A stretch of 64,000 bases of DNA. Origin: a virus. Each line of letters opens with the position of its first letter. Positions within the stretch are counted from its first letter, which is position 1. Location of the stretch: the IMG/VR virus record IMGVR_UViG_3300045988_144476; one strand, given 5' to 3'. A program made the translations under genes and the position numbers. This document shows, piece by piece, positions 19,870 through 61,775 of the stretch. The notes beneath the pieces are model-generated. The model saw only the letters and a program-made list of their open reading frames with translations. It ran no database searches and had not been told where the DNA came from.

Positions 19870-19886
19870 AGAGTTAAAAAAAAGAA

Positions 19887-19948: not shown

Positions 19949-19986
19949 AAAGTCTTAAAATATAAGTAAAAATCAATGTTCATAAA

Positions 19987-20240: not shown

Positions 20241-20375
20241 TAATTATTAACTGTATAAGTTAATGAGTATCATTTGTATATACAGCCTCTCTACGAAGCG
20301 TATATTGGCCTAGAATTAATTCTAATGTGCTTACCCTAAGAAGTACACACTAAATAGTATAAAGTCGATTCTGGC

Positions 20376-44406: not shown

Positions 44407-47400
44407 TTATCTGTTACGTCCTGTCAGTTTCATCATGTCTTTTCTCATGTATTTACTATAATCATTCATAACAGTGTTACTTACCTCTTTGGCAAGTTTC
44501 TTAACATCAACATCACTGCTGATACTATCAACATTGATCGTAACATTGCTATTGAATGTATTTTCCTGATTTGAAGCAGGAATATTAGGTAATTTACCGG
44601 AAAGCATATCATTAAACTGACTCATTGTTGCCGTTGCGGGTTTTAACTGCTTTGTAAATTCCTGAGTAAGGATAGTTTCTCCAGGATTAATTGGAGCAAA
44701 TCCAGTATCGCCATTCTTAAGAATTGCGTCACCTAAGAATGAATTTGCATCTGCCGGTATAAGTTGACGAACAACTCCACCTTTAGAGAATCCATATCCT
44801 TTTAATTCTTTAAGAATTTTATCCTTCCATGATTTCTTCCAGTCTTTATATGGTTTACTTGCAATATAGTTATGACCAAGGATTTTAGCTACCTGTTCAA
44901 AATCCTTCTGACCTACTTTTTTATTTTTCTTCCAGAAATAATAATAGAAATCATGGTGTTTTTCTTTAAATTTGCTGCTTGTAACCTTTCCGGTGGGAAC
45001 ACTATTATACCATTCCTGAAGTTTAGACTTTGTATTTGCAGCTGATTCAACAGCGGCTTTAGCCTTTTGAGCAGCAGCAGCGGCAGCTTCAGCTTGTTCT
45101 CTTGCTTGTCTTTGCTCAATAGTCTCAACTGTTAGATTCGATCCAGAAGGATCCTGACTATTTAAAGCATTATTAACAGCATTATCAGATCCACTCTTGT
45201 CAGGACGCTGACTATCAATCTCGTCCGTATTTGTTTTTGGAACATTTGTAGGTATTTCACTGATAGTTTTATTTGTTAATTGTGCCTTTTTAATAAGGTC
45301 ATCAAACATATCAGAAGTCTTATATCCAGTATCTTCAATAGTTTTCTGAATATTACTATACGCATCAGAATAGGAATTCTGTACTTCTTTAAGCATGTTA
45401 TTAATAACAGACTTCTGAAGCTCTGTATTAGACTTGACAGCCTGAAGTGTTTTATCAAGTGCATCATTGGCCTGCTCAGATAAATTATCATATCCTTTAG
45501 ATTCTAAATCGATTTGGTGTTCATATTTAGTATCTGCCAGATCATCCTCTTTATCTTTAAGATCTGCTTTAAGTTGTGCAAGACGAGCTTTTGCTGATGC
45601 ATTTGTTGTACCTTCAAGAGCAGCAATTTGTGCTTTGAGTGTGTCGATATCCTTATTCTTATCTTTTAAAGTCTTATCATAGTCATAATAATCTTTTTTA
45701 GCACTAAGGGCATCTTTACGCTTATCAATATTATCCTGTAAGGACTTATTAACTTTAGTGATCTGGTCTTCATAAGCCTTAAGCATATTCTGTTGGCTGC
45801 TATAGAGACTCTTAGAAGCTTTATTGATATTAGAAACAGCATCTTTGGTAGCATCTTCATACTCATCAAGAGTTATCATATGATTGTCATACAACTCCTG
45901 AACTTCAGATAATTGTTGTCTATAATCAACGATCTGCTGTTTATAAGCGTCCATTTCTTTGCTAATTAACAAGATATTAGATAATCCCTGTTTTGTGAAT
46001 GAACCATCGTCATTCAGGAATGTATCAGAATCCATCATATCCTGAAGATCGTTTAGATTATCAATATAATCATTCAGATCATCCTGGATGTCACTAAATG
46101 CTTTAAATCTCAGGTCAACAATAGATTTCTTTAATTCCGCTGTACTATTTGCCGTATCAATAATAGAACTATTAATATCAGCTAAATCTTTGGCTAAATC
46201 CTGATACTGAGTAGAATTTTCGCTATATTGACTCATCTGATTAATAATGTCATTTCTTCTATTATTTAAAGCAATAGCGGTTTTATCATTGGTCTTTATA
46301 GCATTTAGATAATCATTTTCGGTCAGATCATTTCCAGAACCTTTATAATTATTTTTTTCTTTATAATCTCTGGAATCAGAAAGCTTATCAGAAGCTCTTT
46401 GATATTTGTCAACTTGCCACTGATCATAAGTAAGTTGGATTTCTTTTAACTTATTTTCATATTCAGCAGTTGATTGTATAATGTCATAATAAGATTTATT
46501 AAGCCCTTCAAGAGTAGCTTTTGCTTCTTTTGTGGCTGTATCATCTGGACCATATTTTTTAGCAAACTCATTATAAGCAGTCTGATACTTCTGAATTTCC
46601 TGATAAATCAAATCTGCTTGTGTCTGATTTGAAGAAATCTGATTTCTGATCGTATTTGTATAATCAGAATTAGGAGCCTGAGATGCACCTTTTTCTTCAC
46701 GAGCAGAATTTAAACTGTCTAAAGTCTCATTGTAAGATGAATAAACCCCAATTAAAGCATCATATCTCTCTGTAATATTGTTAAGTTTCTGCTGGTAGAG
46801 TTCTTTTTCTTTTTGTTTTAATTCCTCTATAGCTTTGTTACAATCATTGATTTTGTCATACCATTTCTGGTAAGCTTCAACCTTTTTCTTGTTATCATCA
46901 GAAAGTTTTGCCAGATCAATTTTACCATTCTTGACTTTATTCTTTAAATCAGCTGATAATCCAATATCTTTTGCAAACTTATCGGATTTCTTGGTGTACA
47001 TTTTAGCACCTTTAGCATAATCCTTCTGAAGTTCCTGATTATCCTTAAGCTGTTTATTGATATAAGTTTCTTTGTTTGCAAGCTTATATGTGTTTTCAGC
47101 TTTAGCAGCATTTAAATCTATACGATTCTCAAGCTTCTTAACTAATCGTTCAAACCAGTCTACAATATCATCAAGATATTTCTTGGAAGAAGATTTAGAT
47201 GAGGATTTATTTTTTTTTCCAGATCCAGATCCTGAACCAGAATTTGAACCAGAAGATTTCTTATTGGAAGAACTAGAAGAAGTAGATTTCCGAGTAGAAG
47301 TGTCTTTAAAATTAAATCCAGTAAGTGCATAAGCATTAGAACCTAATGAACCTTGAGCATAAGCACGAGCATTACTATTTGTTCGTCCATGTTCTAATAA

Positions 47401-50400
47401 ATCTTTTGTTTGGGAAGCATTAAATATAATATCTCCCTTTTTCAGATTTTCGAAATGTGGACCACCTGGTAATAAACTCCACACACCATCACGAACAATA
47501 GATTCCGTACCTACTTCATTTGTAAGGGCAGTCTCATTCTGATTTAAAGCAACATTACCACCTGCATGAGCAGAAGAAAGTGGCTTCAGGTTAAGCATAT
47601 TATAAGCAGTACCATCAGCATGAGCGATTGAGGTCATTGTGCCAGTAGCTTGTACCTTTTTAGTGTATACAGCAGTTCCAAATATTGTAGGAGCAGTTTT
47701 AGGATAACTACCTAAAGTATAATTTGCAGTACCAGATATGTCTGGAGCTGTTGTTGGATGATCACCCATAGTATAATTTGCTTGACCTTTTATATCATCA
47801 GCTACTTTAGGTTCATCACCTTTTTTATAATTTACAGTAATGCTTGCAGGATTTGATTCTATCTGTGATTTAATTGCATCGACATTTCCTACATTACCTT
47901 CTTCTACACCAATTGAAATTTGTACTTCAGGAGGAAGTTGAGCAATTTCATTTACTAATTCTGATACTTTGTCATCTTGCACAATAGCATCAATAGTAAC
48001 ACCTTTTCCTTGAAGTTCAGAAATTCTCGCCTGTAATTGATCTACTAATTCAGCACCTTGAGTTTCGGCTGTAACCTGTACTTTTTTATCATGGATTTGC
48101 TGCAGAAGATCTATTAAAGCCTGAACTTTTTCTGCATCTTCAACATCTCCATCTATTGTAAACTTTGTTTGTTCTTTAGAGAGTTCTTGAATTTTAGATT
48201 CTAGATTGTCGATAGACATAGAATCAGCGTCTATGTCAAGATCAATTTTAGAATTTATTTTTCCATCACTTTGAAGTTGTTTTACATCTTCAAGAGCACT
48301 ATCTGCACTTGCTTTAAGCTCTTCAATTTCTGAAGAGTCAACTTCCGGCTTAAGAACACCCAATCCTTCAAGAGCCTGTACAAGCTGGTCTTTCGTTAAA
48401 CCGGCCTGATTAGCAAGATCTTGTAATGCATCTTCAGCTTGTTCCATACCTTCAACATTGTAAGCACCGTCACCAAGTTGGATTCCTTCAAGATCAGTAG
48501 CAGTATATTGTTTTAGAGCGTTGAAATCAGCTTCAGTTGCTTCTGCATTTGCTTCGTGAGCCTGCTTAACTGCTTCAAGAGAATTCGCATATTCTTTAGC
48601 TGCAGTCGGATCAGAAATTCCCATCTCTTCTGCAGTGAGAGGAGAATCAAATGTTCCAATACCTTTATCGTGTAGCATCTGATTAAAAGCATCTTCGTCA
48701 ACTTCGAACTCAGGAGTTAATTTAATCTTATTATCCTTAGCTAATTGCTGAATACGATCATATAATCCTTGAGCATATTCCTGTTGTGCCGGATCATCTT
48801 TCACCTGTTGGTATTCTTTTGCAAAATCATTAATTGTCTGTTTTGCAGTATTCAGATTTTGCACTTCACGATCAGTTGCGCCATTTACATATGTATCAAG
48901 AGCAGTATTAGCATCATTAACCTGATTCTTTAAATCATCCACAACTTGAGCTTGCTGTTCAATCGCATATTGTGGTGCACCATTGGCAACTAATTCAGAG
49001 TATTTTTCTTGTGCAGAAATAAGATCTTTAGTCTTTTTGGTAACATCAGCCTCTCCTTCGGCTATAGATGAAATATTTGTAACAACTCCACCCATATCTT
49101 CGTAACGGCCAATGTAATCCTTGAATTGTTCTTCACTCATTCCAACTGCTTTGGCTGCAACATCGGAATCAGCAAATGTCATTTGCCATTGTTTAGAGCC
49201 ATCTTCAAGAGTTTTATAAGTAGCAAGTCCTTTTGATTGTAATAAATCAAGGAATTTTAATGGGCCAGATTTATCATCTGTATAATATGGTTTCCACTTA
49301 TTATAATTCTCAATGAAATTATCAGCATCTGTGAATCCATAAGGAGAGAAGTAAGCGGCTTTCTCTTTAAAATCATCTGTACCAATTTCACCATTATCGT
49401 ACATTTCTTTTAAAGATTCTAACTTACTTTTAGTTGCCTTATAATGATCTCCGGCATTTGGAGTGCTTTCAGCATTAATACCCTTTTGCCATTGACTGGT
49501 CTGTTCCTGCATATTTTTATACTGAGCCATATATTCATTTTGAAGATTCTTAAGTTCTTCAAGTTTTTGTTTTTCTGACTCAATAATATTACCATTTGAA
49601 TCGTGGATTTTCTTCTCTTGATCAGCAATCTGAGATGCTAAATCTTTTGAAACCATTTCATTTTGGGCTTCAGAAAGCTCCTGGAATCTATCAGTATTTA
49701 ACTGTAATCCTTTTGCAGATCTTGTAAATAATCCACTTATATCAGTTCCCTGAGCAGTAAGATCACTAAACTGAGTAACAAGATTCTTCACAGAGTCACT
49801 GGTTAATCCAGTTTCACTATTTGTTTCTCCAATAGCAGTACTCAAAGCACTGGTCAGATTTGTAACATCAGTAATAGGAAGATTCTGGATTTCTTCAAGC
49901 CATCCAGCCTGAGAAGCTTTCATATTTTCGATGGACATTTGAGCAGACTGGATTTGATCCTGGTATCCTTTGATCTTCTCATTGTCTTCATCAGTAAGAG
50001 GAGAGATACCTTTACTTTCTCTAATTGTACGGATATTATCCTGGTAATCCTTAATCTGTTTATTCAGATTTGAAATCTGAGCATTACCATTCTCAACAAG
50101 ATTGTTGTAATCCTGTGCAGTTGCTTTCTGATTTAATGCAGATTTATTACTCATTAGGGTCTGCATATCTGAAGCGTCAGTCTGAAGTCTAGTTAAATCT
50201 TTAGAGAGATTTTCAAGATCCTGATCATTCGCATCAAGATGAATTTGTGGACGTAATTCATCAATTTTTGCAATCCATTCATCAAGACTAGCAGTAGCCA
50301 TAGAAGGATCCATAGACAATTTTACAATTGCTTGTTGAGCTACTTTATCACCAGAATATTTATCGAAAAGATTAGTAAGGGTATTTTCTGCATTATCCTT

Positions 50401-52383
50401 TAAGAATTCAGATCCTTTTAAATTTGACCGAACTCGTTTGATTACATCATCCTGAACGTTGCTCATATCAAATCCCGCAGTATTAATACCATCCAAAATA
50501 CTTTGAACATATTTATCTGCAGCAGCTAATTCCTTCGGATCAGTCGTATCTTTTACAGCATCACGAATCTTTCCAATAGCAGTAGAAGCTTTATCGGTTG
50601 CAAGTTTCTGCAAGCCTGTCTGTAAATCATCTGTCTCAGTAGCAAGTTCTGGGAATTGCTGAATAAGATCTGTGATATCAGAACTCTTCATATCACCGGA
50701 TTTCAGGGAATCCATAGCAGTCTTGATATTAGACATACTTGACTGGAAATTATCTGTTACGGTATCAATGTCTGTTGCTGTGTCTTCAGCTGCATTCTTG
50801 AAGAGAGAAGAAAAAGTTTTGGATGTATCTTCGGAAGAAGCTTTAGATTCTTCCATTGCTTTATTCCAATTGGAAGTAAGTGTACCTATTCCCCAATCAT
50901 TCTCTTCAGGATCAAGACCATTATTCTGGAGATAATTCCAGAAAGTTTCTATATCTTTATCTGATTTATCCTTAAAAAATGCATCAGCGATTGAGCCGCC
51001 AGAAGTACTCGGAAGTTTTGACATAAATGCAAAAGTATCTTTAAGATTTTCTTTTACACCTTCAATATTTAATGCTTCCGGATCAGCTATAGCCATGATA
51101 TAAGATGCCAAATCATCTTGTGATACATTTTTATCTCCAAGTGCTGATTTGAGATCAGAATAATCTTTATTACTATTCAGAGCATCAAGAATTCCCTTGG
51201 AACCTTTAGACTTACCAATACTTTCAAGTTTTGTCTGTAAGTCTGCATAATCAGCGAGAGCAAAAAGATTGTTTAGTTTGTCCTCTGTGTCGGAAGATGA
51301 ACCTATGAGATTTGAGTAATTATCAATAAGAGAATTAACCTGGTCAATGGTACCCTGGTATTTCTTATCAAGAACTGTACCATCATCTTTAAGCATACTC
51401 TGTGACTGATCTGAGATATTAGAAATCATTTCAGAAAGTTCTGATTTTTGAGTATCAATACCTTCTTGCTGTCTCTCAAGAGTTTTATTTTCCTCTTCGG
51501 TAATTAGGTCCATATTATCGCTATGACCTTTTTTAATATTTTCATAGGCGGTATCATATCTATCCTGTAGATGTTGGATGTAATCCATTTTTGCCTGAGC
51601 TTCATCAAGATCATTAACATATACTTTGGCTTGTGGATTATAAATTCCACTACCGTCAGAGAAATAATCCTGCTGTAGAGATTTCTTCTTTAGATCTTTT
51701 TGTGCAGCATCTGCCTCAGCAGTTTTGGCACTGTCAGCTAATTTTTGTTTCAATGATACTTGGGCACCAAGAAGTTCATTCTGATCCTGAAGAGTATTTA
51801 ATTCTTGACTCTCTTCTAGTGATCTGTTTTCTTTTGCTCGAAGCTCTTGAATACGATCTTGATTAGTTGCGTATGCAGATTGTGCGGTTTCAAGATCAGA
51901 TTGAGCTGTTTCATTCTTCTCTTGAGCTTTTTGGTATTTCTTTGTGGTGGTTGCTTTTGTAAGATCAAATTGATTATCAAGACCTTTCCATGTAGCTGTA
52001 ACTGCTGCAATGCCTAATGAAAGAATTAATTCTGGAGCAATTGCTTTAAGCACAGATCCAATACCGGATAATACACCACTAGCTTTTCCAGTGACTCCTT
52101 TAGAACCAAATAAGAAACTTTTAATGTCTACAGTTTTGGTAGCATTGTCAAGAGCCTTTTCAACCTCTTCTTTGGTATGCTCTTCACCAAATTTATTCTT
52201 AACAGCTTCAAAAATCTGATCTGTTGATAGGAATTTTTGATTGCCTTTTCTATCGGTGTTTACACGATAAGCCCATTTCATTGCTGTCTCAAAATCTGAG
52301 AATCCACCAAATGCCGCATTTAAATCTTCTTTTGTACCTGTTTTAAATGCATTTTTTAGTTTTCCGATTTTACTTAATGACAT
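44407..52383 (-). CDS. Tape measure protein, distal part (2658 aa)
   Basis: Hydrophobic GIGSVLKAIAPELILSLGIAAV near the N-terminus, very long coiled coils, and a Ser/Gly/Lys linker. C-terminal TMP-type motifs (GTESIVRDGVWSLLPGG; GGVVRQLIPAD...INPGETILTQ). No Shine-Dalgarno precedes the ATG. Confidence 0.8.
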   Translation of the reverse strand: MSLSKIGKLKNAFKTGTKEDLNAAFGGFSDFETAMKWAYRVNTDRKGNQKFLSTDQIFEAVKNKFGEEHTKEEVEKALDNATKTVDIKSFLFGSKGVTGKASGVLSGIGSVLKAIAPELILSLGIAAVTATWKGLDNQFDLTKATTTKKYQKAQEKNETAQSDLETAQSAYATNQDRIQELRAKENRSLEESQELNTLQDQNELLGAQVSLKQKLADSAKTAEADAAQKDLKKKSLQQDYFSDGSGIYNPQAKVYVNDLDEAQAKMDYIQHLQDRYDTAYENIKKGHSDNMDLITEEENKTLERQQEGIDTQKSELSEMISNISDQSQSMLKDDGTVLDKKYQGTIDQVNSLIDNYSNLIGSSSDTEDKLNNLFALADYADLQTKLESIGKSKGSKGILDALNSNKDYSDLKSALGDKNVSQDDLASYIMAIADPEALNIEGVKENLKDTFAFMSKLPSTSGGSIADAFFKDKSDKDIETFWNYLQNNGLDPEENDWGIGTLTSNWNKAMEESKASSEDTSKTFSSLFKNAAEDTATDIDTVTDNFQSSMSNIKTAMDSLKSGDMKSSDITDLIQQFPELATETDDLQTGLQKLATDKASTAIGKIRDAVKDTTDPKELAAADKYVQSILDGINTAGFDMSNVQDDVIKRVRSNLKGSEFLKDNAENTLTNLFDKYSGDKVAQQAIVKLSMDPSMATASLDEWIAKIDELRPQIHLDANDQDLENLSKDLTRLQTDASDMQTLMSNKSALNQKATAQDYNNLVENGNAQISNLNKQIKDYQDNIRTIRESKGISPLTDEDNEKIKGYQDQIQSAQMSIENMKASQAGWLEEIQNLPITDVTNLTSALSTAIGETNSETGLTSDSVKNLVTQFSDLTAQGTDISGLFTRSAKGLQLNTDRFQELSEAQNEMVSKDLASQIADQEKKIHDSNGNIIESEKQKLEELKNLQNEYMAQYKNMQEQTSQWQKGINAESTPNAGDHYKATKSKLESLKEMYDNGEIGTDDFKEKAAYFSPYGFTDADNFIENYNKWKPYYTDDKSGPLKFLDLLQSKGLATYKTLEDGSKQWQMTFADSDVAAKAVGMSEEQFKDYIGRYEDMGGVVTNISSIAEGEADVTKKTKDLISAQEKYSELVANGAPQYAIEQQAQVVDDLKNQVNDANTALDTYVNGATDREVQNLNTAKQTINDFAKEYQQVKDDPAQQEYAQGLYDRIQQLAKDNKIKLTPEFEVDEDAFNQMLHDKGIGTFDSPLTAEEMGISDPTAAKEYANSLEAVKQAHEANAEATEADFNALKQYTATDLEGIQLGDGAYNVEGMEQAEDALQDLANQAGLTKDQLVQALEGLGVLKPEVDSSEIEELKASADSALEDVKQLQSDGKINSKIDLDIDADSMSIDNLESKIQELSKEQTKFTIDGDVEDAEKVQALIDLLQQIHDKKVQVTAETQGAELVDQLQARISELQGKGVTIDAIVQDDKVSELVNEIAQLPPEVQISIGVEEGNVGNVDAIKSQIESNPASITVNYKKGDEPKVADDIKGQANYTMGDHPTTAPDISGTANYTLGSYPKTAPTIFGTAVYTKKVQATGTMTSIAHADGTAYNMLNLKPLSSAHAGGNVALNQNETALTNEVGTESIVRDGVWSLLPGGPHFENLKKGDIIFNASQTKDLLEHGRTNSNARAYAQGSLGSNAYALTGFNFKDTSTRKSTSSSSSNKKSSGSNSGSGSGSGKKNKSSSKSSSKKYLDDIVDWFERLVKKLENRIDLNAAKAENTYKLANKETYINKQLKDNQELQKDYAKGAKMYTKKSDKFAKDIGLSADLKNKVKNGKIDLAKLSDDNKKKVEAYQKWYDKINDCNKAIEELKQKEKELYQQKLNNITERYDALIGVYSSYNETLDSLNSAREEKGASQAPNSDYTNTIRNQISSNQTQADLIYQEIQKYQTAYNEFAKKYGPDDTATKEAKATLEGLNKSYYDIIQSTAEYENKLKEIQLTYDQWQVDKYQRASDKLSDSRDYKEKNNYKGSGNDLTENDYLNAIKTNDKTAIALNNRRNDIINQMSQYSENSTQYQDLAKDLADINSSIIDTANSTAELKKSIVDLRFKAFSDIQDDLNDYIDNLNDLQDMMDSDTFLNDDGSFTKQGLSNILLISKEMDAYKQQIVDYRQQLSEVQELYDNHMITLDEYEDATKDAVSNINKASKSLYSSQQNMLKAYEDQITKVNKSLQDNIDKRKDALSAKKDYYDYDKTLKDKNKDIDTLKAQIAALEGTTNASAKARLAQLKADLKDKEDDLADTKYEHQIDLESKGYDNLSEQANDALDKTLQAVKSNTELQKSVINNMLKEVQNSYSDAYSNIQKTIEDTGYKTSDMFDDLIKKAQLTNKTISEIPTNVPKTNTDEIDSQRPDKSGSDNAVNNALNSQDPSGSNLTVETIEQRQAREQAEAAAAAAQKAKAAVESAANTKSKLQEWYNSVPTGKVTSSKFKEKHHDFYYYFWKKNKKVGQKDFEQVAKILGHNYIASKPYKDWKKSWKDKILKELKGYGFSKGGVVRQLIPADANSFLGDAILKNGDTGFAPINPGETILTQEFTKQLKPATATMSQFNDMLSGKLPNIPASNQENTFNSNVTINVDSISSDVDVKKLAKEVSNTVMNDYSKYMRKDMMKLTGRNR
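52338..52347. repeat. 10-bp direct repeat, left copy (ctgttttaaa)
   Basis: Identical 10-mer at 55997-56006. Both copies encode F-K-T in the same codon phase of the two tape-measure ORFs. Confidence 0.4.
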
Positions 52384-52436: not shown

Positions 52437-53024
52437 ATGGCTTTAATAAAATGTCCTGAATGTGGTAAGGAAGTTTCCAATAAAGCTCCAGCGTGCATAC
52501 ATTGTGGTTTCCCATTGAGTGAACTCAAAAAAGAAGGCACTTGTAAAATAAATGATCAAGAAGTTGATCTGATAAGGATCAAAAAATTATATGATTCATT
52601 ACCAGATGAATGTAAAAAAATTATATATAAAAGTTGTCGAACAAACGCAACAAAAACAGAAAAATATATTTGTTCATGTTCTCCGGATACATATACTGTA
52701 GAAGAAAGTAATAAAATTTATGATATTTATATGGATATGATATTTCCAATCCAAAAACAATTTAATTGGTTTGGTGCTAATGAGTATTTAGTTCACAGAT
52801 TCCTTGTAGAATGCATCGATCACAACTTTGAATACTTTGAGTTCAATACCTCAGATTATCCTTCTCCCGGATCTCAAAATCAACTTCGTTGTCCAAAATG
52901 TGGTTCAACTTCAATCGTTCCAGAAAAAAGAGGATACGATATTATGTGGGGATTTTTAGGATCTGAGAGAATCGTATATAATGTATGTCAGAAGTGTGGA
53001 CATAAGTGGAAGCCTGGAAAATAA
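52437..53024 (+). CDS. Double zinc-ribbon protein (195 aa)
   Basis: RBS AAAGGAGAG. N-terminal CPECG...CIHCG and C-terminal CPKCG...CQKCG. Confidence 0.65.
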
Positions 53025-53047
53025 GGAGCAGTTACTTAATTGTTTTG

Positions 53048-53200
53048 TCAATCATATGTATAACGCATTTTTGGAATGCCAGAATCATTCAAACGAGAAT
53101 TAATAATTTGCTGTAATTTTTCTTGCTCTTTTTCAAATTGCCACCAGTAGATTACTTTTAGTATATTTTGATGTTTTGGTGTGGGTATAAGGTATAACAT
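53048..53200 (-). CDS. Possible small ORF (50 aa)
   Basis: Below the track cut-off: MLYLIPTPKHQNILKVIYWWQFEKEQEKLQQIINSRLNDSGIPKMRYTYD. Only a weak RBS. Confidence 0.3.
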   Translation of the reverse strand: MLYLIPTPKHQNILKVIYWWQFEKEQEKLQQIINSRLNDSGIPKMRYTYD

Positions 53201-53277
53201 GTTGATCAGCTCACTTTCAAGAGGGAATAATGAATATAAGAAAAATAAAGAAAACGATATATATACAACCGATATAA

Positions 53278-53442
53278 TTATTCACTTATGTCATGTTTTT
53301 GGTCTTGACAATCTGTATCTGATGAAGTGACCGGTATAAAACATTGAGTGAATATATATTTACAAAGTTCTTCTGTGTTTGTTTCAGTTATAGGCATACT
53401 GTCTGAATAAATGGTAGACACTTGTTCTGATTGTGTATTCAA
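53278..53442 (-). CDS. Possible small acidic ORF (54 aa)
   Basis: Below the track cut-off. TTG start 6 nt after GAGGTG. MNTQSEQVSTIYSDSMPITETNTEELCKYIFTQCFIPVTSSDTDCQDQKHDISE. Confidence 0.4.
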   Translation of the reverse strand: MNTQSEQVSTIYSDSMPITETNTEELCKYIFTQCFIPVTSSDTDCQDQKHDISE

Positions 53443-53504
53443 TTAAATCACCTCGATTCTAATAAAAGTGTGGTTATAAGTGGTGGCTGGGGAGATAAAT
53501 AATT

Positions 53505-54320
53505 ATGTATATTGATACCTATGATACTAATAACGAAGATGAAAGATTTAAAAAATATGTAGAAATTCTTAAATCCCATGATCAGCTAAAAAAATCATTA
53601 TGGAATAAGCTTAATACTCCAGAAGTGTTAAAATTAGAAGAAGAATCAGATACTCTTTTTAAAGAATATATGAAACTAGATAGAAAACTTCAAAGAGAGG
53701 TTGCGTTTTATAATAGTTATTTGAAATCTGATTCTGATTGTATAGATTATTGCGATGTAAAATTTCATGAAGATCTAGATTTTAATCTTCCTGAAGAAAT
53801 TCAAGAGTTGGCTAATACATTTCATAAGAAAGATAAAGAATATAGTTGTGCTTGTAATGCCCACAAAGAAGCATTATGTAAAAATTTTGTAAAGCTAATA
53901 TCAGATATTACTCCTGAAAATTGTTTTAGAGATAATTCATTTGGAAGTACTCGTGATGTCTTCTCAGATTTTTATAATTCATGCAAACCATTCATGATCC
54001 TTAACATGGGGTTATACGAGCTTATTATAGTTCAAGATATTTTTACAGATAAGTATCATCATACAAATTATTCTATTACTATGTATGAATTGAAAAACAT
54101 GTCAAACTTTGATGTAAAAGTAAGATGTGAAAAGTTCTTCGATCAATTTAATAAAGAATTAGAACCATATCGACAAAACTTACGTTCTAACTTCGAACAT
54201 AAAACTCCTGTTCTGACACCTTTTAAAGATGCATATACTCTTTTTGCTCAGACCAGATCAGAAGAATATGGCAGAACTAGACAATATCTGATTATTGGAT
54301 GTGTGGTGTATCAAAAATAG
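53505..54320 (+). CDS. Hypothetical protein (271 aa)
   Basis: RBS GGGGAG. No recognisable motif. Confidence 0.6.
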   Translation: MYIDTYDTNNEDERFKKYVEILKSHDQLKKSLWNKLNTPEVLKLEEESDTLFKEYMKLDRKLQREVAFYNSYLKSDSDCIDYCDVKFHEDLDFNLPEEIQELANTFHKKDKEYSCACNAHKEALCKNFVKLISDITPENCFRDNSFGSTRDVFSDFYNSCKPFMILNMGLYELIIVQDIFTDKYHHTNYSITMYELKNMSNFDVKVRCEKFFDQFNKELEPYRQNLRSNFEHKTPVLTPFKDAYTLFAQTRSEEYGRTRQYLIIGCVVYQK

Positions 54321-54365
54321 CAGAAAATACGTTCTGATTTACATATTATATGAAAATGGTATAAT
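54321..54365 (+). promoter_or_regulatory. Operator/promoter copy 1
   Basis: cagaaaatacgttctgatttaca (CAGAA-N6-TTCTG palindrome abutting -35 TTTACA), 16-nt spacer, then extended -10 TGgTATAAT. Confidence 0.6.
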
Positions 54366-54371
54366 TTACCA

Positions 54372-54555
54372 TGTAGATGGTGAGTGTACGCACCGCCCAC
54401 CTGTGCGTATCTACAAGCAACCCGTTAACCTATACACCATGAGAAAGTAGAGGTGTATGCTTATTTCCAGGAGTCTACATGATTCTGGTAGTCGTATCAA
54501 GTTCATCTTAGCTTCCAAACAAATAGTGAATCCGTCACTAGATTGGAGGTGAAAG
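54372..54555 (+). ncRNA. About 185-nt structured 5' leader of peptide 1 (class unknown)
   Basis: Nested stems gtaga/tctac plus tacgcac/gtgcgta, atacacc/ggtgtat and ccagga/ttctgg. CCACCT (54397-54402) is complementary to SD AGGTG. Confidence 0.4.
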
Positions 54556-54738
54556 ATGAATAATAATGATCGACTATTTAAGCTTGCAAGTTTAACACTT
54601 TTCTTGGTAGTTATAGTAGCTATAGTTTGGATAATTCTAGACCATAATCCAATCGTTTTAAAGGCAACTATTAACATATTGAAATTTTCTGCTGAGATTA
54701 GTTGCGAGTTTGCAAGCGTTGCATCAGGCTGCAATTAA
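54556..54738 (+). CDS. Small membrane peptide 1 (60 aa), type I toxin-like architecture
   Basis: GGAGGTG RBS. N-terminal TM helix LASLTLFLVVIVAIVWIIL and a polar tail. Confidence 0.55.
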   Translation: MNNNDRLFKLASLTLFLVVIVAIVWIILDHNPIVLKATINILKFSAEISCEFASVASGCN

Positions 54739-55072
54739 GTTGACCGTGGGTCGTTTATAGCCTGAGAATCAGAGGGTAATTCCTTTGATGTAAAACGGTG
54801 CCTTTTGCTCCAACAAGAGGTACCGTTATCAATAGAAATACCATGACATTTTACAATATCAGATTTTATTATTTGAGATTTCTCTTTGCTTATAAACAGC
54901 GAATCTAATTTATTATTCATAATAGTTCCTTTTATCCATTTTATTATATATTTGAAAATAAAGCTCCTGGATATTCCAAGAGCTTTGTTATCGGCAATCG
55001 TTCACGATTATTTTTTAAACAGGGGAGTGCCCGGATCAGCCGATATGATTCCCTCAGCATGTGAGCCTGTTA

Positions 55073-55118
55073 CAGAAAATATGTTCTGATTTACAAAAAT
55101 ACCAAATATTGGTAATAT
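55073..55118 (+). promoter_or_regulatory. Operator/promoter copy 2
   Basis: cagaaaatatgttctgatttaca (22 of 23 identical to copy 1), 17-nt spacer, then extended -10 TGgTAATAT. Confidence 0.6.
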
Positions 55119-55124
55119 ACCAAT

Positions 55125-55308
55125 AGGTATTTTGTGGTTGTAGATGATGCATTACAACACGATTGCACGGCAAATACCTGATTTATTCTTTAATAAATCA
55201 TGCATAAGCAAAGCTATACAATCTTGTATACGCAATGCGAAAAGAGAATTCTGCCCGTTCTGGGCGAAACTTCCCAAATAAGAAATTTTTATTAGGGGAG
55301 GAGGTGAA
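55125..55308 (+). ncRNA. About 185-nt structured 5' leader of peptide 2 (class unknown)
   Basis: Stems aggtattt/aaatacct, gttgta/tacaac, tgatttatt/aataaatca, tatacaa/tgtata and gccc/gggc. Hairpin 55271-55299 pairs UUCCC with the first GGGGA of the SD. Confidence 0.4.
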
Positions 55309-55494
55309 ATGAATATGATTGAATTGTTTAGTATTTTTGGAGGTCTTCTAGTAATTATAATCTTAGCTCATATGTATTATAGTTCAAAGAAACACACCAT
55401 TGATCAGATTTGTAATCATCCAGAATTATCTGATGAGAAAGTTGAATCGATCACTAAAATGATGAAAAGACAGTACAAAGATCGTATCAAATAA
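55309..55494 (+). CDS. Small membrane peptide 2 (61 aa), type I toxin-like architecture
   Basis: GGGGAGGAGGTG RBS. N-terminal TM helix LFSIFGGLLVIIILAHMYY and a K/E-rich tail. Confidence 0.6.
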   Translation: MNMIELFSIFGGLLVIIILAHMYYSSKKHTIDQICNHPELSDEKVESITKMMKRQYKDRIK

Positions 55495-55572
55495 TTCTAA
55501 TGTCATTTCCCAATTATGAATTCTCCTTTAGATTTAAAGTTTTAATAGATTTTTAGAAATGTTTACGAAAGA

Positions 55573-55598
55573 GGCCGGGAGTATTCTCGGTCTTTTTT
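55573..55598 (+). terminator. Intrinsic terminator closing the + strand cassette
   Basis: ggccggg-agtatt-ctcggtc (7 bp including 2 G-U pairs) followed by TTTTTT. Confidence 0.65.
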
Positions 55599-55985
55599 CT
55601 CTTCATTCACAGTAGAAGAGTAGTACTGAGTGGATTTCACCACCGTTACAGTGGTACATGCATTAAAAGCATATGTCTTTCCGAACTTAACATATACTCC
55701 GAGGAAGGGTGCACTCTCTACACTTCCTGATTATTCATATGCTTCCATCACCATAACTTTCGTTATTGCTTCTAGTGTATCACATATTACTAAACGTAAA
55801 TCAGGTTGGCACATGCGTCACTCTGCGAACTTGCGTTCACTTCACTGCATAAGCAGAATAACAGGCTTCGATGTTTTATTCCTCTATTTATTTATAGCCG
55901 CTAGTCTCCACACATTGATTATTAATCTCTATGTAGATAGGCTCATTATCAAAATCGGAAAAATAAATGTAACCCTGAGTTTGGG

Positions 55986-58900
55986 TCAACCTACGGCTGT
56001 TTTAAAACCACCACCAATTAAGAAATCTAATCCTTTTTTACCTGCATTCTTTACAGTCATTGCTGAGAAAATTGCAGTGATTAGAGCTGGTATTGGTCCT
56101 AAAGTTTTCTCTAATCCGGTAAATCCTTCTGTTAATCCATGTACAAAATCAAGTGCTCCACCTACTTGATCTGAATTATAGAAGTTTAACCAGAATTCGT
56201 CCATTTGAGTTTTAATGGCCTGGACTTTGCCATTGAAAGATTCCATGTATTTCTCTTGGTTTGCTTCAGCGTTACCTTGAGCATTTGTAGCTTCTTCAGC
56301 TAAAGACATGGAGTCTGTGAATGCGTCCAATATGTTCTTGAACTTGGATGTTTGTCTTGTCGCTGCGACATCAAATGCGATTTTTGCTTGCTGTGCATCA
56401 GTCAAATCATTCCATTTGGATTTCAGTTCGGATAATACCGTAACAATTCCACGGTCTGATCCATCTGGATTATAGACATCAACACCTATAGAATGCAGAG
56501 AAGCAGAAGCATTTGATAATGTTGCATTATCAACCTCATCTGCGTATTGTGGCATTTTACCGACTTTTGTGGTTCTGGTAATAATTGTCTTTAAAGCATT
56601 ACCAATTGAACTTCCATCTTCACGAGTTCTTTCAGCTACTTTTGCAGAAATAGCAGCTAATTGTTCATATGACATTCCGGCATCATAAGCAACCTGACCT
56701 GAAGCCTGTACAGCATCAGACATTACCTTAATACCTTTGGCATAATCCATACCCACGTTCGATGATATTTTATCCATTACATCTACTACATGCATAGAAG
56801 CATCAGCAGCAGAAGTAGATCCGTCTTCTAACATATGGAACTGCTGTAAAATACCCTGTACCTGGTCAGCAGCAGTAGAAGCATCAACACCACTTAAGTT
56901 ACTCAGAATAGCAGTCGGTTTAGCAGTTTCCTGAATTTCTTTTGAAGTAGTATTCATATTTGCATAGATCTGATAAATATCCATTGTATTATCAAGAGAC
57001 ATTGACAGATCTTTTGCCATATCAACAGCAGAAGTACCTAAATCAGATAATTGCTGTTTATTCATATCCATGGTATAACTGATAGTAGTTAAAGCCTTAT
57101 CATAATCCATGAATGTATTGAATCCTTCACGCATTTGTTGCCATGCCTGTTGCATAATTTGGATACTACCAACAGCATTTGCGACATCACCAAGAGCGGA
57201 AGTAAAGTTACCTTTTACAAGTCCTTTCAGACTATCTGAAAGAGATGTAAAACCAGATGTTCCGGATTTATTTGTATATTTCTCCATTGTACGGAGACTG
57301 TCATTTGCTTTTTCTATATTACCTGTAAGAGTAACAAGATTACCTGAAACATCTTTAAAAACTAATGATATAGAACCGGTACTTTTATTTATACTAGTTG
57401 AAACTTCATTAGTAAGACCAAGTTGAGATGCATAATTTCTTAGAGCAGAAGTAGCATCATCAATATCTTTTATGGTACCAAGAGTACCTTCTTGTAAAAT
57501 ACCTTTTCCATTTTTTCTATCATATCCAGAAGCAGTTTTTTGGAAATTTTCAATATCAGAAATGATATTATTAACAGAATCATGAAAATTATTTTCGTCA
57601 ATTTCTTTATTATTAAGTGAATCAACTAATTGATTGTATCGTGTTCTAAATTCAGTGATCTTATCTTTGTAGGCATCAATTTTATTTCCAGAATTTGCAA
57701 ATTTATTTAATTTATTTATTTGTTCTGCGAAATTAAGCTCGTCATTACCTGTCACAGTATTTTCATAATAATTCTTTAGATCTGTAAATTTTTCGGTCTG
57801 TTCTTGTATTTTATCAACATAATCTAAAATACCATTAGCATTTTTATTTTGATTAAATGCACTTTCAGCATCTTTAGTAGATGTTTTTATACTTTCTAAA
57901 TCAGCTTTTAAACGATCGGTTATACGACCTGCACTTTCAAGTTTGGTGAGATAACTATCGACTTGATTTAAGAATGACTTAGAATTATTTGAAATTAACT
58001 GATCTTGAGTAGCATTGGCTCTATTACGAATATCAAATATTGCATTTTCAGCAACTTCTTTCCCAAATATGCTATTTACTTGTGCACGAAGACTTTGATA
58101 TGCATTAGTATAATTTTCACCTAAAATCTTTCCGGCAGTAATATCGGCTCCATCTTTAGTAGCAAGACCAAGAAGTTTGTTTTCGTTATTTCTTTTGTTT
58201 GAATATGCCTTCTTCATCAATTCAATGATATTATTGTTTTTACCATCAAAATTAGAATAATCAGACATATCATCAAAAGCCTTTTGATATGAATCAAATT
58301 TCTTTTGATCTAAAATTCTGTCGGGATTTGATTTATTATTATCGTATACTGTATTATAAAAATCCCCAACTTCTTTTCGTAAAGATTTAATTTTATCTAC
58401 TTGAGCATTTACTTTTTCAATGTATTCATCTTTACCATATTTGCCAGAAGCTCCATTTGCCTGGATATTATATAAATCAACATATGCTTGTTTTAATTCT
58501 TTAACTTTAGCAATAGCAGAGTCATATGTTTGATTATAATCATCTATATTTTTCTGTGTATTTTCTTTCTGAAAAGCACTATATGCACCTTGTTCAGCTT
58601 CACCTAATTTACTTTTTTGGGTGTTATAAGCATTTACACGATCTTTTCCTAATACATCAGAATGCTGTTCAATAAATTTATCGGCATCCTCAATATTCTT
58701 TTGTTTATTATCAATTTCTTTGCGTAAATTGTTAATTAATTCATTAGAAGCACCTTTAGATTTAGCAGAAGATAATTCTTTATTTTTCTTCTCTAGTTTA
58801 GAAAGACCATTCATTAAATCGGTGTATTCAGAAATAATTTGATCTGAAATACGATTTCCCGCACGTTCGTTCATATCAATCCGATGTTGTTCAATTCCTT

Positions 58901-61775
58901 TTTGAATTGCCTCATCAAATTGTTCAGTCGTATATTCAGGATGTTCTTGAGCATAAGTCTCTGCATCTGCTCTTAAGCTCTTCATACGTCCCTTTAAATA
59001 TCCAATACGTTTTTTAGAAGCTTTAATATTAGATTGACTACTATTTTTGGCAATACCTGCCTCCATATCAGCAAGATCTTCACGTTCGGTCATTAATCTT
59101 TTTTCTATATTAATTGCTTCTGTCTCTAACGCTGCATATCCGCTTTTTATATCACCGCCAGATTGTCTCCATAAACCATCTGAATCTTTTGTGAGAGTTC
59201 TAGTGTATGATCGTCCGGTCTGATCGTCTTTGTAAACTGTAGTCTTTTTTCGACCATTAATGTCTTCCTTATTAGACACAAGTCTATAATTCTTATATGG
59301 ATTATCTTGTTCCAAAAACCCTAAAAGTTTTTCTGGAGAAAGTTTAAATCCATTATATGTACTACCTAAAAGATTTCCAGATTTATAACCAGTTAAAAAA
59401 TTCTCTTTATGAGCAATAAAACTTTGTTCGTTTTCAGCTGCTTGAGCATTTTTCTTAGCTTGTATAATACGAACTCTTTGTTCTTCTCTATCAGATTTGC
59501 TTTGAGCAGTATCTGTAGATACTTTTAATTTAGGCGCAGAAGTAACTTTATATTTTCTTTCTTCTTGTTTAACAGATTCTTCCTGCTTCTTAGCCGTATC
59601 CTCAGTAGCAACACCAAGTCTCTTAGTAGAATCAGCCATCTGATCAATATTTTCAGTGGCATTACCGGCAGCAGAAGCAACAGCATCATTGATATGATCA
59701 ACGGCAGTATCCACAGCATCTGCAGTCTTTTCTGTTTTCTTAGCTTGAGTGGTAGGAGATTTAGAAGAAGTAGATGTATCCTCTAAAGAATCACGAAGTG
59801 CATAATGAGTGTCAGAAAGAAAATATAATCCTTTAGTATCTTTACCAGATTTTTTACGAATTTTCCCTAATAATCTTTCTTCGTATCTTTCTGTTTTATC
59901 TAAATCTGCAATAGATAAATTTCCGTTATTTTTTTTGATATTTTGAGCAAACATCTGATTGACAAGTTTATCAGCTGCATTTCTAATACTATCATGTGAT
60001 AATAATGTACCATCAAAATTATTTATCTGATCATAAATTTGAGAAAAAATAGATAATCTTTGTTCTAACCCTTTTAATTCTGATTCGGCATCTTTCAAAT
60101 TAGTATTTTGATTTACATAAGGAGAATGTAAATTTAAAGCTTCTGCAGGTATACCATTTTTTAAAGCAGTTATATAATATTTTCTTGTTTTATATAAAGC
60201 TGCAGTTTCTGAAAAACTACCTTGTGGTATATCTGGATTTTCTCGAATTTGATCTAAATCTCTTGAAGCTGCCATAAATTTTGTGGCGGCATTTTTTTTA
60301 CCAGTAGCAGAATAATCAGCGTTTACAATTGAATCATATACAGAACCTTTCGAAGTAATATTCTGTGTAGGAGTAGTAGATTGAGTGGATTTCTTCTGGG
60401 TAGTTTTAGGTTTAGAAGAAGTAGATTTGGAAGTAGATTTCTTTTTAGGAGTGGTTGTTTTTGGAGCGAAACTAGAAACAGCTTTCTTTTCCGCATCTTG
60501 TTGCTCTAAGAATAGTTTGGCAGATTGTTCTTCATATATTTTTTTGAAAAATCCTGTAGTATCTTGTTCGAATATAAGGTTTTTTACGTCATCAAAATCT
60601 TGAAGATCTTTAAGACCTGTTCCACCCTTATATTTATACACTAGGAGATTTCCAAGAATACCAGCCTGAACAGTTGGGCTTAAGTCTTCATTTTGAAAAT
60701 CATGTTCCCGTCTGTATCTATTTAATGTTGCTCTTGACGTTTTAGCGTCATTTTTTTCAATAGCTTCTAGTATTTTATCTTTAGCATTAGATAATTCTCT
60801 ATTTTTAGTATCTAAAATATCACGTTTTCCTGCATCTTTAGCTTGGGCTGTCAGTCCAGTTTGCACTGACTTTAAAGCATCTATAACTTCTTTAGATCCA
60901 GCACCAATGGATTTTGCTGCTGTAATAAATACTGTAGCGATTCCTTCACCACCAGCTTCTAACGAAGTCTTTATATCGCCAATTAATGCTTTTTGAGATA
61001 CTTCTTCAGTAACAGATGTATTAAAACCGGGAATAAGTTCAGAATTTTTTTTGGTAAAATAATTTCTTGTGGCTACTTGATGACCACCTAAATTATCTGG
61101 AGTATTATTTTTATTAAATTGTTCAACAAGTCTGTCATGATAAGCAAGAACGTCCGCTTGTCTTTGTCGTGCAGCTAACATTTCATCTAAAGTTTCATAT
61201 TCTTCAGCTTTAAAAAGTCCAGACTTACTGCTATAAGATTCATTAATTTTTTTTATAATATTACCAATACGAAACAATTCTGCAATTTGTTCTTGATATT
61301 CACTAGAAATTTTATTCTTATTTATAAAAGAAGTAATTCCACCACGAACTCTTGAATCTAATTCAGAAGTAGACGCTAATTCTGGATATTGAGACATAAA
61401 ATCTTTTACATTAGCATTTTTACCTAATTGTGTTAAATTTTTTTTTGTAACGTTGGTAGTTGCATTTGAAATAGCACTTTCTAATGCCTTTGCATATGCT
61501 TTAGCGTCACTTAAAGTTTTCTTATCAAGATTTGATGGAAGTTTTACTTCTCCCATTAATGGAATTTTAGTTTCTTTATATTTAATCTCAGCTTCTGTTT
61601 TAATTGGCTTTTCAGCCTCTCTACGAGCTTTATCTATTTTTGATGTATCTGGGATAATAGTATCTTTTGTTTCATAATCTTTACTTGCTTCTTTTTTCCA
61701 TTCATCCCATAATTTTTTATCAACATTAATCGGAACATTTATTTCATGTTCGCCACTTGGTCCTTGATAACTCAT
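55986..61775 (-). CDS. Tape measure protein, proximal part (1929 aa, TP901-type core)
   Basis: AGGTGA RBS and long coiled coils. Core-region motif MDYAKGIKVMSDAVQASGQVAYDAGMSYEQLAAISAKVAERTREDGSSIGNALKTII. Ends in hydrophobic GPIPALITAIFSAMTV...GGGFKTAVG. Confidence 0.85.
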   Translation of the reverse strand: MSYQGPSGEHEINVPINVDKKLWDEWKKEASKDYETKDTIIPDTSKIDKARREAEKPIKTEAEIKYKETKIPLMGEVKLPSNLDKKTLSDAKAYAKALESAISNATTNVTKKNLTQLGKNANVKDFMSQYPELASTSELDSRVRGGITSFINKNKISSEYQEQIAELFRIGNIIKKINESYSSKSGLFKAEEYETLDEMLAARQRQADVLAYHDRLVEQFNKNNTPDNLGGHQVATRNYFTKKNSELIPGFNTSVTEEVSQKALIGDIKTSLEAGGEGIATVFITAAKSIGAGSKEVIDALKSVQTGLTAQAKDAGKRDILDTKNRELSNAKDKILEAIEKNDAKTSRATLNRYRREHDFQNEDLSPTVQAGILGNLLVYKYKGGTGLKDLQDFDDVKNLIFEQDTTGFFKKIYEEQSAKLFLEQQDAEKKAVSSFAPKTTTPKKKSTSKSTSSKPKTTQKKSTQSTTPTQNITSKGSVYDSIVNADYSATGKKNAATKFMAASRDLDQIRENPDIPQGSFSETAALYKTRKYYITALKNGIPAEALNLHSPYVNQNTNLKDAESELKGLEQRLSIFSQIYDQINNFDGTLLSHDSIRNAADKLVNQMFAQNIKKNNGNLSIADLDKTERYEERLLGKIRKKSGKDTKGLYFLSDTHYALRDSLEDTSTSSKSPTTQAKKTEKTADAVDTAVDHINDAVASAAGNATENIDQMADSTKRLGVATEDTAKKQEESVKQEERKYKVTSAPKLKVSTDTAQSKSDREEQRVRIIQAKKNAQAAENEQSFIAHKENFLTGYKSGNLLGSTYNGFKLSPEKLLGFLEQDNPYKNYRLVSNKEDINGRKKTTVYKDDQTGRSYTRTLTKDSDGLWRQSGGDIKSGYAALETEAINIEKRLMTEREDLADMEAGIAKNSSQSNIKASKKRIGYLKGRMKSLRADAETYAQEHPEYTTEQFDEAIQKGIEQHRIDMNERAGNRISDQIISEYTDLMNGLSKLEKKNKELSSAKSKGASNELINNLRKEIDNKQKNIEDADKFIEQHSDVLGKDRVNAYNTQKSKLGEAEQGAYSAFQKENTQKNIDDYNQTYDSAIAKVKELKQAYVDLYNIQANGASGKYGKDEYIEKVNAQVDKIKSLRKEVGDFYNTVYDNNKSNPDRILDQKKFDSYQKAFDDMSDYSNFDGKNNNIIELMKKAYSNKRNNENKLLGLATKDGADITAGKILGENYTNAYQSLRAQVNSIFGKEVAENAIFDIRNRANATQDQLISNNSKSFLNQVDSYLTKLESAGRITDRLKADLESIKTSTKDAESAFNQNKNANGILDYVDKIQEQTEKFTDLKNYYENTVTGNDELNFAEQINKLNKFANSGNKIDAYKDKITEFRTRYNQLVDSLNNKEIDENNFHDSVNNIISDIENFQKTASGYDRKNGKGILQEGTLGTIKDIDDATSALRNYASQLGLTNEVSTSINKSTGSISLVFKDVSGNLVTLTGNIEKANDSLRTMEKYTNKSGTSGFTSLSDSLKGLVKGNFTSALGDVANAVGSIQIMQQAWQQMREGFNTFMDYDKALTTISYTMDMNKQQLSDLGTSAVDMAKDLSMSLDNTMDIYQIYANMNTTSKEIQETAKPTAILSNLSGVDASTAADQVQGILQQFHMLEDGSTSAADASMHVVDVMDKISSNVGMDYAKGIKVMSDAVQASGQVAYDAGMSYEQLAAISAKVAERTREDGSSIGNALKTIITRTTKVGKMPQYADEVDNATLSNASASLHSIGVDVYNPDGSDRGIVTVLSELKSKWNDLTDAQQAKIAFDVAATRQTSKFKNILDAFTDSMSLAEEATNAQGNAEANQEKYMESFNGKVQAIKTQMDEFWLNFYNSDQVGGALDFVHGLTEGFTGLEKTLGPIPALITAIFSAMTVKNAGKKGLDFLIGGGFKTAVG
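55997..56006. repeat. 10-bp direct repeat, right copy (ctgttttaaa)
   Basis: See 52338-52347. Confidence 0.4.

Follow-up and report, generated by a model that had tools for sequence, protein, structure and literature searches.

The window analysed in this study is the 64,000-nt stretch of virus DNA filed as IMG/VR record IMGVR_UViG_3300045988_144476. Positions 54321 to 55494 contain two modules, each consisting of an operator-promoter element, a leader RNA and an open reading frame (ORF) for a small membrane peptide. The leader of the second module (leader 2) was identified, with strong support, as a member of a conserved pseudoknotted RNA family that is new to Rfam. The anatomy of the operators and promoters, the modularity, the pairing of the Shine-Dalgarno (SD) sequences, the covarying pseudoknotted RNA and the coding constraint were all observed directly. 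Our favoured reading, which we consider fairly probable, is that the modules are two independent moron cassettes in which SOS-derepressed transcription is combined with leader-gated translation of small membrane effectors.

Leader 2 folded at -51.2 kcal/mol (z = -2.65 against shuffles). Most loci encoding relatives of the second peptide (peptide 2) have a homologous leader, and 22 diverse leaders were aligned with MAFFT (alignment A10, the columns of which give the helix positions in Table 1). The RNA is approximately 190 nt long and has 34 pairs in seven helices, including the pseudoknot. Paired cells amounted to 90.4% in the alignment, compared with 37-43% when the partners were slid. Double changes were observed at 26 pairs (115 cells), against 15.1 ± 2.2 pairs (36 cells) in shuffles, and none of 500 shuffles reached the observed covariation values; among the closer relatives alone, six pairs already had double changes. 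The pseudoknot varied on both sides (CCACAU/AUGUGG, UCGUAU/AUACGA, UCGCAU/AUGCGA and CUGCAU/AUGCAG), the window having AUGCAU in the P2 loop at 55147-55152 and again at 55200-55205. P5 of the window reads CUGCCC-GUUC-UGGGCG (55251-55266). The helix P6, which contains the SD, was 92.9% paired across the 22 leaders; in the window it is formed by the anti-SD CUUCCC (55270-55275) and GGGGAG of the SD (55295-55300), confirming a hairpin between UUCCC and GGGGA of the SD that had been described in the first-pass annotation, made from this sequence alone. Unpaired blocks were also kept invariant in the family, namely GCACGRCA and UUCUGCCC-NUUC-UGGGCAAUACA, and the invariant blocks of leader 2 include GCACGGCA and UGGGCGAAAC.

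A covariance model built from the family (R1) matched positions 55113-55315 of the window with 121.8 bits (E = 2.9e-22). Besides the window, 55 of 73 viral loci were matched, with one match per locus, on the strand of the gene and immediately upstream of it. The gene downstream always belonged to one family, small membrane proteins with an "HPELSDEKV" tail, and a homologous -10 element, TGnTAWWAT, was present just 5' of the RNA across the family. Rfam 15 returned no family for leader 2, either in the window (at the gathering score and at E <= 10) or at 17 diverse loci (at the gathering score). Of the two leaders, for which the first-pass annotation had proposed an Rfam scan and a comparative alignment, leader 2 covaries and belongs to no Rfam family; leader 1 showed no double-sided covariation among its five distinct sequences. 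As an alternative the annotation had suggested riboregulators in a class not yet recognised, an idea that gains strong support in the case of leader 2; leader 1 lies outside the RNA family. The peptide-2 cassette was also found with unrelated upstream regions (in the related loci L030 and L031, and in the L077 and L080 types). In L030 and L031 the upstream region has neither the operator nor the family RNA, yet a UUCC anti-SD lies opposite GGGAAGG; gene callers extend the ORF there to 88-100 aa, probably wrongly.

Because a multi-helix pseudoknot with invariant unpaired nucleotides is conserved, leader 2 would be expected to sense or bind something, or to need processing, before the SD is released. 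It resembles translational riboswitches in its multi-helix, covarying, pseudoknotted 5' untranslated region (UTR) with invariant unpaired positions and an anti-SD:SD end, and in its consistent placement upstream of one gene family. It differs from them in having no Rfam match, and the likeness is one of structure and placement. We propose only tentatively that leader 2 may define a new kind of sensory RNA carried by phages, either a riboswitch or a pseudoknotted leader responding to a protein or an RNA, which in temperate phages of gut Clostridia would gate an SOS-transcribed membrane effector of the HPELSDEKV family. If so, the module would be a two-input AND gate around prophage induction, requiring DNA damage and a second cellular signal. 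The family itself, previously uncatalogued, widespread, strongly covarying and found in human-gut phages, is a candidate riboswitch or regulatory-RNA class for which a covariance model is now built.

Leader 1 folded at -63.2 kcal/mol (z = -4.4 against shuffles). Its segment 54501-54519 (GUUCAUCUUAGCUUCCAA) pairs with both the SD (GGAGG, 54545-54549) and the AUG, in the minimum free energy fold as well as in the consensus fold. CCACCT at 54398-54403, which had been taken as complementary to the SD, pairs locally inside the 5' stem-loop instead. The consensus of leader 1 has 57 pairs with no double changes and several one-sided, pair-preserving changes, among only five distinct sequences. In the main helix, the 3' strand (SD and AUG) is fixed by translation, and changes in the 5' strand mostly keep the pairing; the 80%-identical leader of L039 still sequesters the SD and AUG (z = -3.2). 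Model R1 did not match leader 1. A structured leader is thus plausible here, and it is less well supported than leader 2. The description of two long structured leaders was borne out, both being 184 nt long and more stable than shuffles with the SD paired. The designation of the modules as twins did not hold beyond the 23-nt element described below; the leaders are unrelated, as are the peptides when peptide 1 was compared with the peptide-2 family (profile-profile). Two upstream ORFs were rejected, one of 31 aa in leader 1 that terminates within the SD of ORF1 and one of 25 aa in leader 2 that overlaps the ATG of ORF2, because their frames and stops are not conserved in L039 or L032.

The 23-nt element CAGAAAATAYGTTCTGATTTACA occurs exactly twice in the window, at 54321-54343 and 55073-55095. 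As had been noted from the sequence, the copies are 752 bp apart and identical at 22 of 23 positions; no third copy was found at 3 mismatches, and 100 dinucleotide shuffles gave no match. The annotated palindrome, CAGAA-N6-TTCTG directly abutting a -35 TTTACA, was upheld in part: the box abuts the -35, and the outermost C varies, being T in several lineages. The C/T position of the 23-mer is not cassette-specific. Comparison of lineages gave a conserved operator core of AGAAAATAYGTTCT, containing GAAA-N4-GTTC. Copy 1 is invariant across all module-1 lineages, including the roughly 80%-identical L039 and L040. A promoter scan recovered the TG-extended -10 boxes, TATAAT and TAATAT, that had been reported after each copy; promoter P1 is kept in L039-L043, with a predicted transcription start site (TSS) at about 54372. 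TGGTA...TACCA inverted repeats at both -10 boxes were considered as a second operator and rejected, as they correspond to the extended -10 and the 5' strand of helix P1. The promoter is present a third time at 2483-2713 of L041 (TTCTGATTTACA-N13-TGATATAATTTACC), where it lacks the left half-site (ATTC for GTTC) and drives, after only a short leader, a hydrophilic 54-aa ORF. The promoter core thus serves several small-gene cassettes, some of them with the box and some lacking it.

The consensus of Clostridial LexA is GAAC-N4-GTTT/C (PMC4234289). The boxes of the window, GAAA-N4-GTTC, match the Firmicute LexA box GAAC-N4-GTTC at seven of eight positions. They are thus near-consensus palindromes located at promoters, as LexA operators are, without being exact ones. 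By themselves they are weak evidence for LexA, the comparison with relatives being the decisive part. Upstream regions of peptide-2 relatives (26, non-redundant) were compared with two control regions: an exact LexA-consensus box was present in 7 of 26, against 1 of 26 in each control. The exact boxes cluster 227-245 nt upstream of the ATG, and that of the window lies at 234. When promoters were aligned by the start of the RNA, acaAAACnTATGTTCtGGATTTA kept one position in 10 or more lineages, between flanks that do not align; these diverged lineages have acaAAAC-nTAT-GTTCtGGATTTA directly 5' of the -35, L145 being another example. AAAC-N4-GTTC, the reverse complement of GAAC-N4-GTTT, is exact in orthologous promoters of L050, L067, L097, L102, L113, L145 and others, and some lineages have a 1-mismatch variant of it at the operator position. 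The distance between box and -35 differs by 1 nt between lineages, which fits a repressor that works by occlusion. Since the box is also found ahead of a different, short leader (L077) and of the unrelated module 1, it follows the promoter and not the RNA.

The dimeric regulator that had been predicted to lie outside the window is, by this comparison, probably host LexA; being a host protein, LexA would not be encoded in the window. Exact and relaxed scans of IMG/VR for the 23-mer gave no match, and of 13 matches in GTDB genomes only that in L027 was real, the other 12 being chance hits in unrelated phyla or inside ORFs (that in L017 falls inside a 630-aa ORF). Two further assignments were tried and rejected. 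A perfect GAACTTGCGTTC at 55827, examined as a LexA box, forms a hairpin stem with compensatory changes (AGGC/GCCU in L039). A CodY box, considered for its half CAGAAAAT, was discarded by eye because GTTC, the half constant in all lineages, does not belong to a CodY box and L032 lacks the CAGAAAAT half.

The modules also occur independently. Dozens of metagenomic contigs encode the same peptides, with module 2 alone in L009, L010 and L012 and module 1 alone in L004, L005, L042 and L043. Sharp ends of homology coincide with the left operator boundary in L009, L027, L042 and L123 and with the terminator at 55595; copy 1 is the left breakpoint of the module-1 cassette, and copy 2 is that of cassette 2 in L009 and L027. 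No terminator of its own was found for module 1 in the window, and in L039 and L040 the module-1 homologue is joined directly to the terminator of module 2. Independent occurrence and sharp breakpoints therefore indicate that each module is a cassette extending from operator to terminator, i.e., a moron. Like other phage morons, the cassettes have an autonomous promoter and terminator, are inserted between phage genes, run opposite to the flanking late genes (here a tail-gene operon), are variably present with sharp breakpoints and lie in contexts that vary between phages. They differ in having, in addition, an SOS-type operator and an elaborate RNA leader.

Both ORFs, as annotated, encode peptides of 60-61 aa with one N-terminal transmembrane (TM) helix after a strong SD, and both are under purifying selection. 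For ORF1, maximal hydrophobicity (KD19) was 3.04 (residues 10-28) and omega was 0.48 (against L039). The peptide-1 family is narrow and lineage-restricted, with five clusters, none of them in IMG/VR, and a wider search for module-1 relatives gave only near-identical copies. For ORF2, the KD19 maximum was 2.26 (residues 3-21) and omega 0.26 overall, with 0.12 in the soluble tail as opposed to 0.57 in the TM helix. Because selection is strongest on the soluble tail and not on the TM helix, this pattern points to a specific partner of peptide 2 rather than generic membrane damage. A profile search collected phage membrane proteins of 54-77 aa in 38 clusters at 50% identity, members being encoded in 73 IMG/VR loci; the motif SK.H[TA][IV]D.IC.HPELSD[ED]KV..IT.M is nearly invariant. 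The lysines directly after the TM helix predict an N-out, C-in topology by the positive-inside rule. AlphaFold modelled peptide 2 as two helices (pLDDT 71), and a Foldseek search of the model against BFVD gave no significant match. Pfam, NCBIfam and PADLOC had no family for the peptides, and PHROGs gave only a weak match with no annotated function. In L032 (273-458), the reading frame of a peptide-2 homologue is interrupted by TGA at a codon that is TGT (Cys) in relatives; the database protein P0006 reads this TGA as Trp. A sequencing error or a recoding artefact may account for it, as may a recent nonsense mutation, and the sister contig L048, with an identical leader, is intact.

Table 1. 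Features of the two modules and helices of the leader-2 RNA family (helix positions are columns of alignment A10; all others are window positions).
Feature	Position	Strand	Description
Operator copy 1	54321..54336	+	LexA-type core box GAAAATACGTTC at 54323-54334, directly 5' of -35
Promoter P1	54338..54365	+	TTTACA, 16-nt spacer, TG-extended TATAAT (54360-54365); 11/12 match
Leader 1	54372..54555	+	184 nt; 5' terminal stem-loop, two middle hairpins, long 3' helix
ORF1	54556..54738	+	60 aa; TM helix at about residues 10-28; conserved tail ...NPIVLKATINI.KFSAEISCEFASVASG
Operator copy 2	55073..55088	+	LexA-type core box GAAAATATGTTC at 55075-55086
Promoter P2	55090..55118	+	TTTACA, 17-nt spacer, TG-extended TAATAT (55113-55118); predicted TSS about 55125
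Leader 2	55125..55308	+	184 nt from predicted TSS; member of pseudoknotted RNA family
ORF2	55309..55494	+	61 aa; N-terminal TM helix; conserved tail SKKHTIDQICNHPELSDEKVESITKMMKRQYK
Intrinsic terminator	55567..55598	+	Closes cassette 2
Helix P1	columns 33-36 / 107-110		Closing stem
Helix P2	columns 43-49 / 60-66		
Pseudoknot	columns 54-59 / 132-137		P2 loop with segment after hairpin Px
Helix Px	columns 112-115 / 128-131		
Helix P4	columns 140-144 / 159-163		
Helix P5	columns 196-199 / 207-210		GCCC-NUUC-GGGC, nearly invariant
Helix P6	columns 220-223 / 251-254		Anti-SD UUCC with GGRA of SD

The following sequence of events is suggested for the two independent, horizontally shuffled morons, which run against the direction of the tail-gene operon in a large temperate phage of gut Clostridia. 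Sequence and comparison suggest that the LexA-type box at a near-consensus sigma-A promoter would keep each cassette off until damage triggers self-cleavage of LexA. With the SD base-paired, and in module 1 the AUG too, the primary transcript would by default be poorly translated. A second input would then open the SD, with a ligand, a protein, temperature and processing by RNase as candidates; in leader 2 it would act on the conserved RNA core. The products would be small bitopic membrane proteins, and the strongly conserved cytoplasmic helix of peptide 2 (HPELSDEKV) probably has a specific binding partner at the membrane, a protein of host or phage, during SOS or induction. The peptides could arrest growth in the manner of toxins, inhibit division, act as antirepressors or exclude superinfecting phages, and the data do not separate these roles.

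Several observations weigh against this reading. The boxes of the window are one mismatch off the consensus (GAAA instead of GAAC), and the bare 8-position LexA motif is not enriched in the 64 kb. Among lineages with the RNA, about half lack the box, so SOS control would be optional, and the peptide-2 homologue of L030 and L031 has neither this leader nor the operator. Moreover, the starts at about 54372 and 55125 are predicted ones, leader 1, with its five distinct sequences, lacks double-sided covariation, and a phage repressor with a similar half-site is a possible binder. A repressor encoded by the phage, of the CI/Xre-like or MrpR-like kind, would make the cassettes early lytic genes, silent in the lysogen and activated together with the remaining phage genes. 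Such repressors typically have an operator that recurs at several promoters, the MrpR-SPBRE system of SPβ controls a toxin promoter (PMC10516654), the boxes of the window depart from the LexA consensus at one position, and the repressor gene may lie in a part of the phage beyond these 64 kb. We nevertheless regard a phage repressor as unlikely. The SPBRE CAAATACAAAWAATATGTATATA, derived from seven SPβ promoters, is non-palindromic and different, and the integrase-like protein of the window is unlike MrpR (E = 0.023 against YopR, over 106 aa only), so that an SPBRE/MrpR system was rejected on sequence, on symmetry and on the lack of an MrpR-like protein in the window. The element was found nowhere else in the window or in approximately 400 kb of related loci, early-gene promoters included. 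One box consensus, equal to that of host-type LexA, is kept across phages with peptides 35-60% identical. Specificities of phage repressors normally diverge faster than this, and host LexA is favoured because a specificity conserved across diverged phages fits a host factor better.

As to the leaders, they may act as constitutive translational dampers or mRNA stabilisers that set a low, safe expression instead of sensing. Both open with a stable 5' stem and close with SD pairing, the changes in leader 1 are one-sided only, no terminator/antiterminator alternative is evident, and no ligand-like gene association can be inferred from the downstream gene, to which no function is assigned. Against this stand the pseudoknot, the seven covarying helices and the invariant unpaired blocks of leader 2, kept across very diverged phages; this structure far exceeds what damping would require, and we give damping a minor though appreciable chance. 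The modules had been likened to type I toxins of Firmicutes, in which membrane-damaging peptides are silenced by their leaders and by an antisense or trans RNA antitoxin, here an unrecognised one, as in txpA/RatA, bsrG/SR4 and yonT/SR6. The peptides agree with such toxins in size and hydrophobicity (60-61 aa, a single TM helix), the long structured 5' UTR hides the SD, with or without the AUG, and the modules are phage-borne; the promoter of yonT/spbT, a type I toxin of SPβ, also carries a repeated operator (PMC10516654), and E. coli has type I toxins under LexA control (PMC8309996). The label itself was not sustained: the peptides match no toxin family in Pfam, NCBIfam, PHROGs or PADLOC, and Rfam no toxin or antitoxin RNA. 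Consensus sigma-A promoters and terminators were searched on the minus strand of the cassette in 22 lineages and none was conserved, and duplex energies within the island revealed no outlying trans complementarity, the best of approximately 140 windows having a z of about -3. A minus-strand promoter inside ORF1 (54589-54560), considered as an antisense source, is destroyed in L039, and the convergent minus-strand unit is protein-coding and independent of module 1. Constraint on peptide 2 is mostly on the soluble tail, and the cassette is a lone gene in many contexts. As no RNA antitoxin was detectable in the 22 lineages, membership in type I is not supported, and we rate it as improbable. Still less probable, in our view, are SOS-induced division inhibitors of the YneA/SosA/SidA kind, or membrane-tethered antirepressors aiding prophage induction. 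Gram-positive SOS inhibitors are small, single-TM, poorly conserved and LexA-controlled (PMC6851548), and the present peptides are single-TM proteins behind a LexA-type box; they have no LysM domain, their genes are not adjacent to lexA, no homology was found, and the tail of peptide 2 is predicted to be cytoplasmic, while YneA and SosA act through an extracellular C-terminus.

The favoured SOS- and leader-controlled arrangement can be compared with known systems. In E. coli, tisB and dinQ are LexA-controlled genes with an inhibitory 5' UTR and a small membrane peptide (PMC8309996). The present modules resemble tisB/istR-1 and dinQ/agrB in the LexA-type box at the promoter, the long 5' UTR that folds the transcript into an inert form and the single-TM peptide of the inner membrane. 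They differ in the lack of a detectable antitoxin small RNA, in peptides of twice the length, in the strongly conserved soluble tail of peptide 2 and in being carried by a phage, with a Firmicute as host; the sequences are not homologous. With SPβ MrpR-SPBRE they share a large temperate Firmicute phage, a small membrane-peptide gene whose promoter bears a repeated operator, and a layout in which a small opposite-strand island adjoins the tape measure gene; the operator differs in sequence and symmetry, there is no MrpR-like protein or SR6-like antisense RNA, and the box matches LexA. YneA and SosA are likewise small single-TM proteins from LexA-repressed promoters (PMC6851548), the LexA box being a candidate here; the present peptides differ in lacking LysM, in not lying beside lexA, in the predicted cytoplasmic C-terminus and in being phage-borne. 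The modules may thus be a Gram-positive, phage-borne analogue of tisB/dinQ, apparently without an antitoxin RNA. Probable direct control of moron genes by host LexA in Clostridial phages would connect SOS induction in the gut by antibiotics or DNA damage with membrane effectors, and the module could reveal whether leader gating alone suffices to control potentially harmful small membrane proteins.

The DNA of the window is phage throughout, encoding ribonucleotide reductase, NAMPT, NadE, dUTPase, a tyrosine integrase, a GH25/CHAP endolysin, and tail fibres together with tail proteins of very large size. The region had no blastn match among INPHARED phages. The closest relatives of the endolysin are from phages of human faeces and from Blautia and Monoglobales phages, so a member of the gut Clostridia is the most likely host. 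Of the prophage location originally given, what stands is a phage genome with an attP-like region; integration is not demonstrable. This region (19661-20375) adjoins the integrase gene and has a segment resembling the 3' end of a tRNA (about 19880-19935; ARAGORN found no full tRNA), with the direct repeat TTTACCATAATTTT(T)ACCATAACT on either side, at about 19728 and about 19990. The sequence GAACGAATGTTT at 19785, approximately 125 nt upstream of the integrase start, matches the Clostridial LexA consensus exactly.

Both modules are located in a 3.6-kb plus-strand island (52437-55600) between two minus-strand genes, the tape-measure gene (55986-61775), whose stop faces the island, and a gene for a 2658-aa tail protein (44407-52383), whose start does. 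Between the modules, a minus-strand ORF (54920-54735) for a hydrophilic 61-aa protein is convergent with ORF1, the two stops overlapping in TTAA. Indels of 12 and 3 nt in it are in frame and omega is 0.27, indicating a real protein gene; it is independent of module 1 and occurs elsewhere alone or with module 2. A GC-rich hairpin with compensatory changes (54794-54828) is located inside this gene. At 54954-54992, between the region of the minus-strand gene and module 2, a 12-bp hairpin (AAAGCUCCUGGA/UCCAAGAGCUUU) with A and U tracts on both sides resembles a bidirectional terminator and may end read-through from promoter P1.

The spacer from the ORF2 terminator to the tape-measure stop (55600-55986) is non-coding and 83-93% identical in L039, L042 and L027, with indels of 1, 4, 19 and 51 nt; a 179-aa ORF called there by gene finders (55630-56169) is spurious. 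It contains a hairpin at 55827-55838 whose 4 bp are fully compensatory (GAAC/GUUC vs AGGC/GCCU). The spacer may be a structured noncoding RNA or UTR, on either strand, and had no match in Rfam. At the other end of the island, 52437-53024 encodes a double zinc-ribbon protein of 195 aa (PHROG 2546, function not annotated), the gene of which recurs upstream of the cassette on the same strand in at least four other lineages (L050, L068, L091 and L104). A gene for a GmrSD-like (DUF262-type) nuclease adjoins the cassette upstream in L120, L108, L113, L116 and L097. Elsewhere the cassette lies beside dUTPase/NrdD/NrdG genes or a large serine recombinase gene, with phage tRNA genes nearby in L070, L096 and L099.

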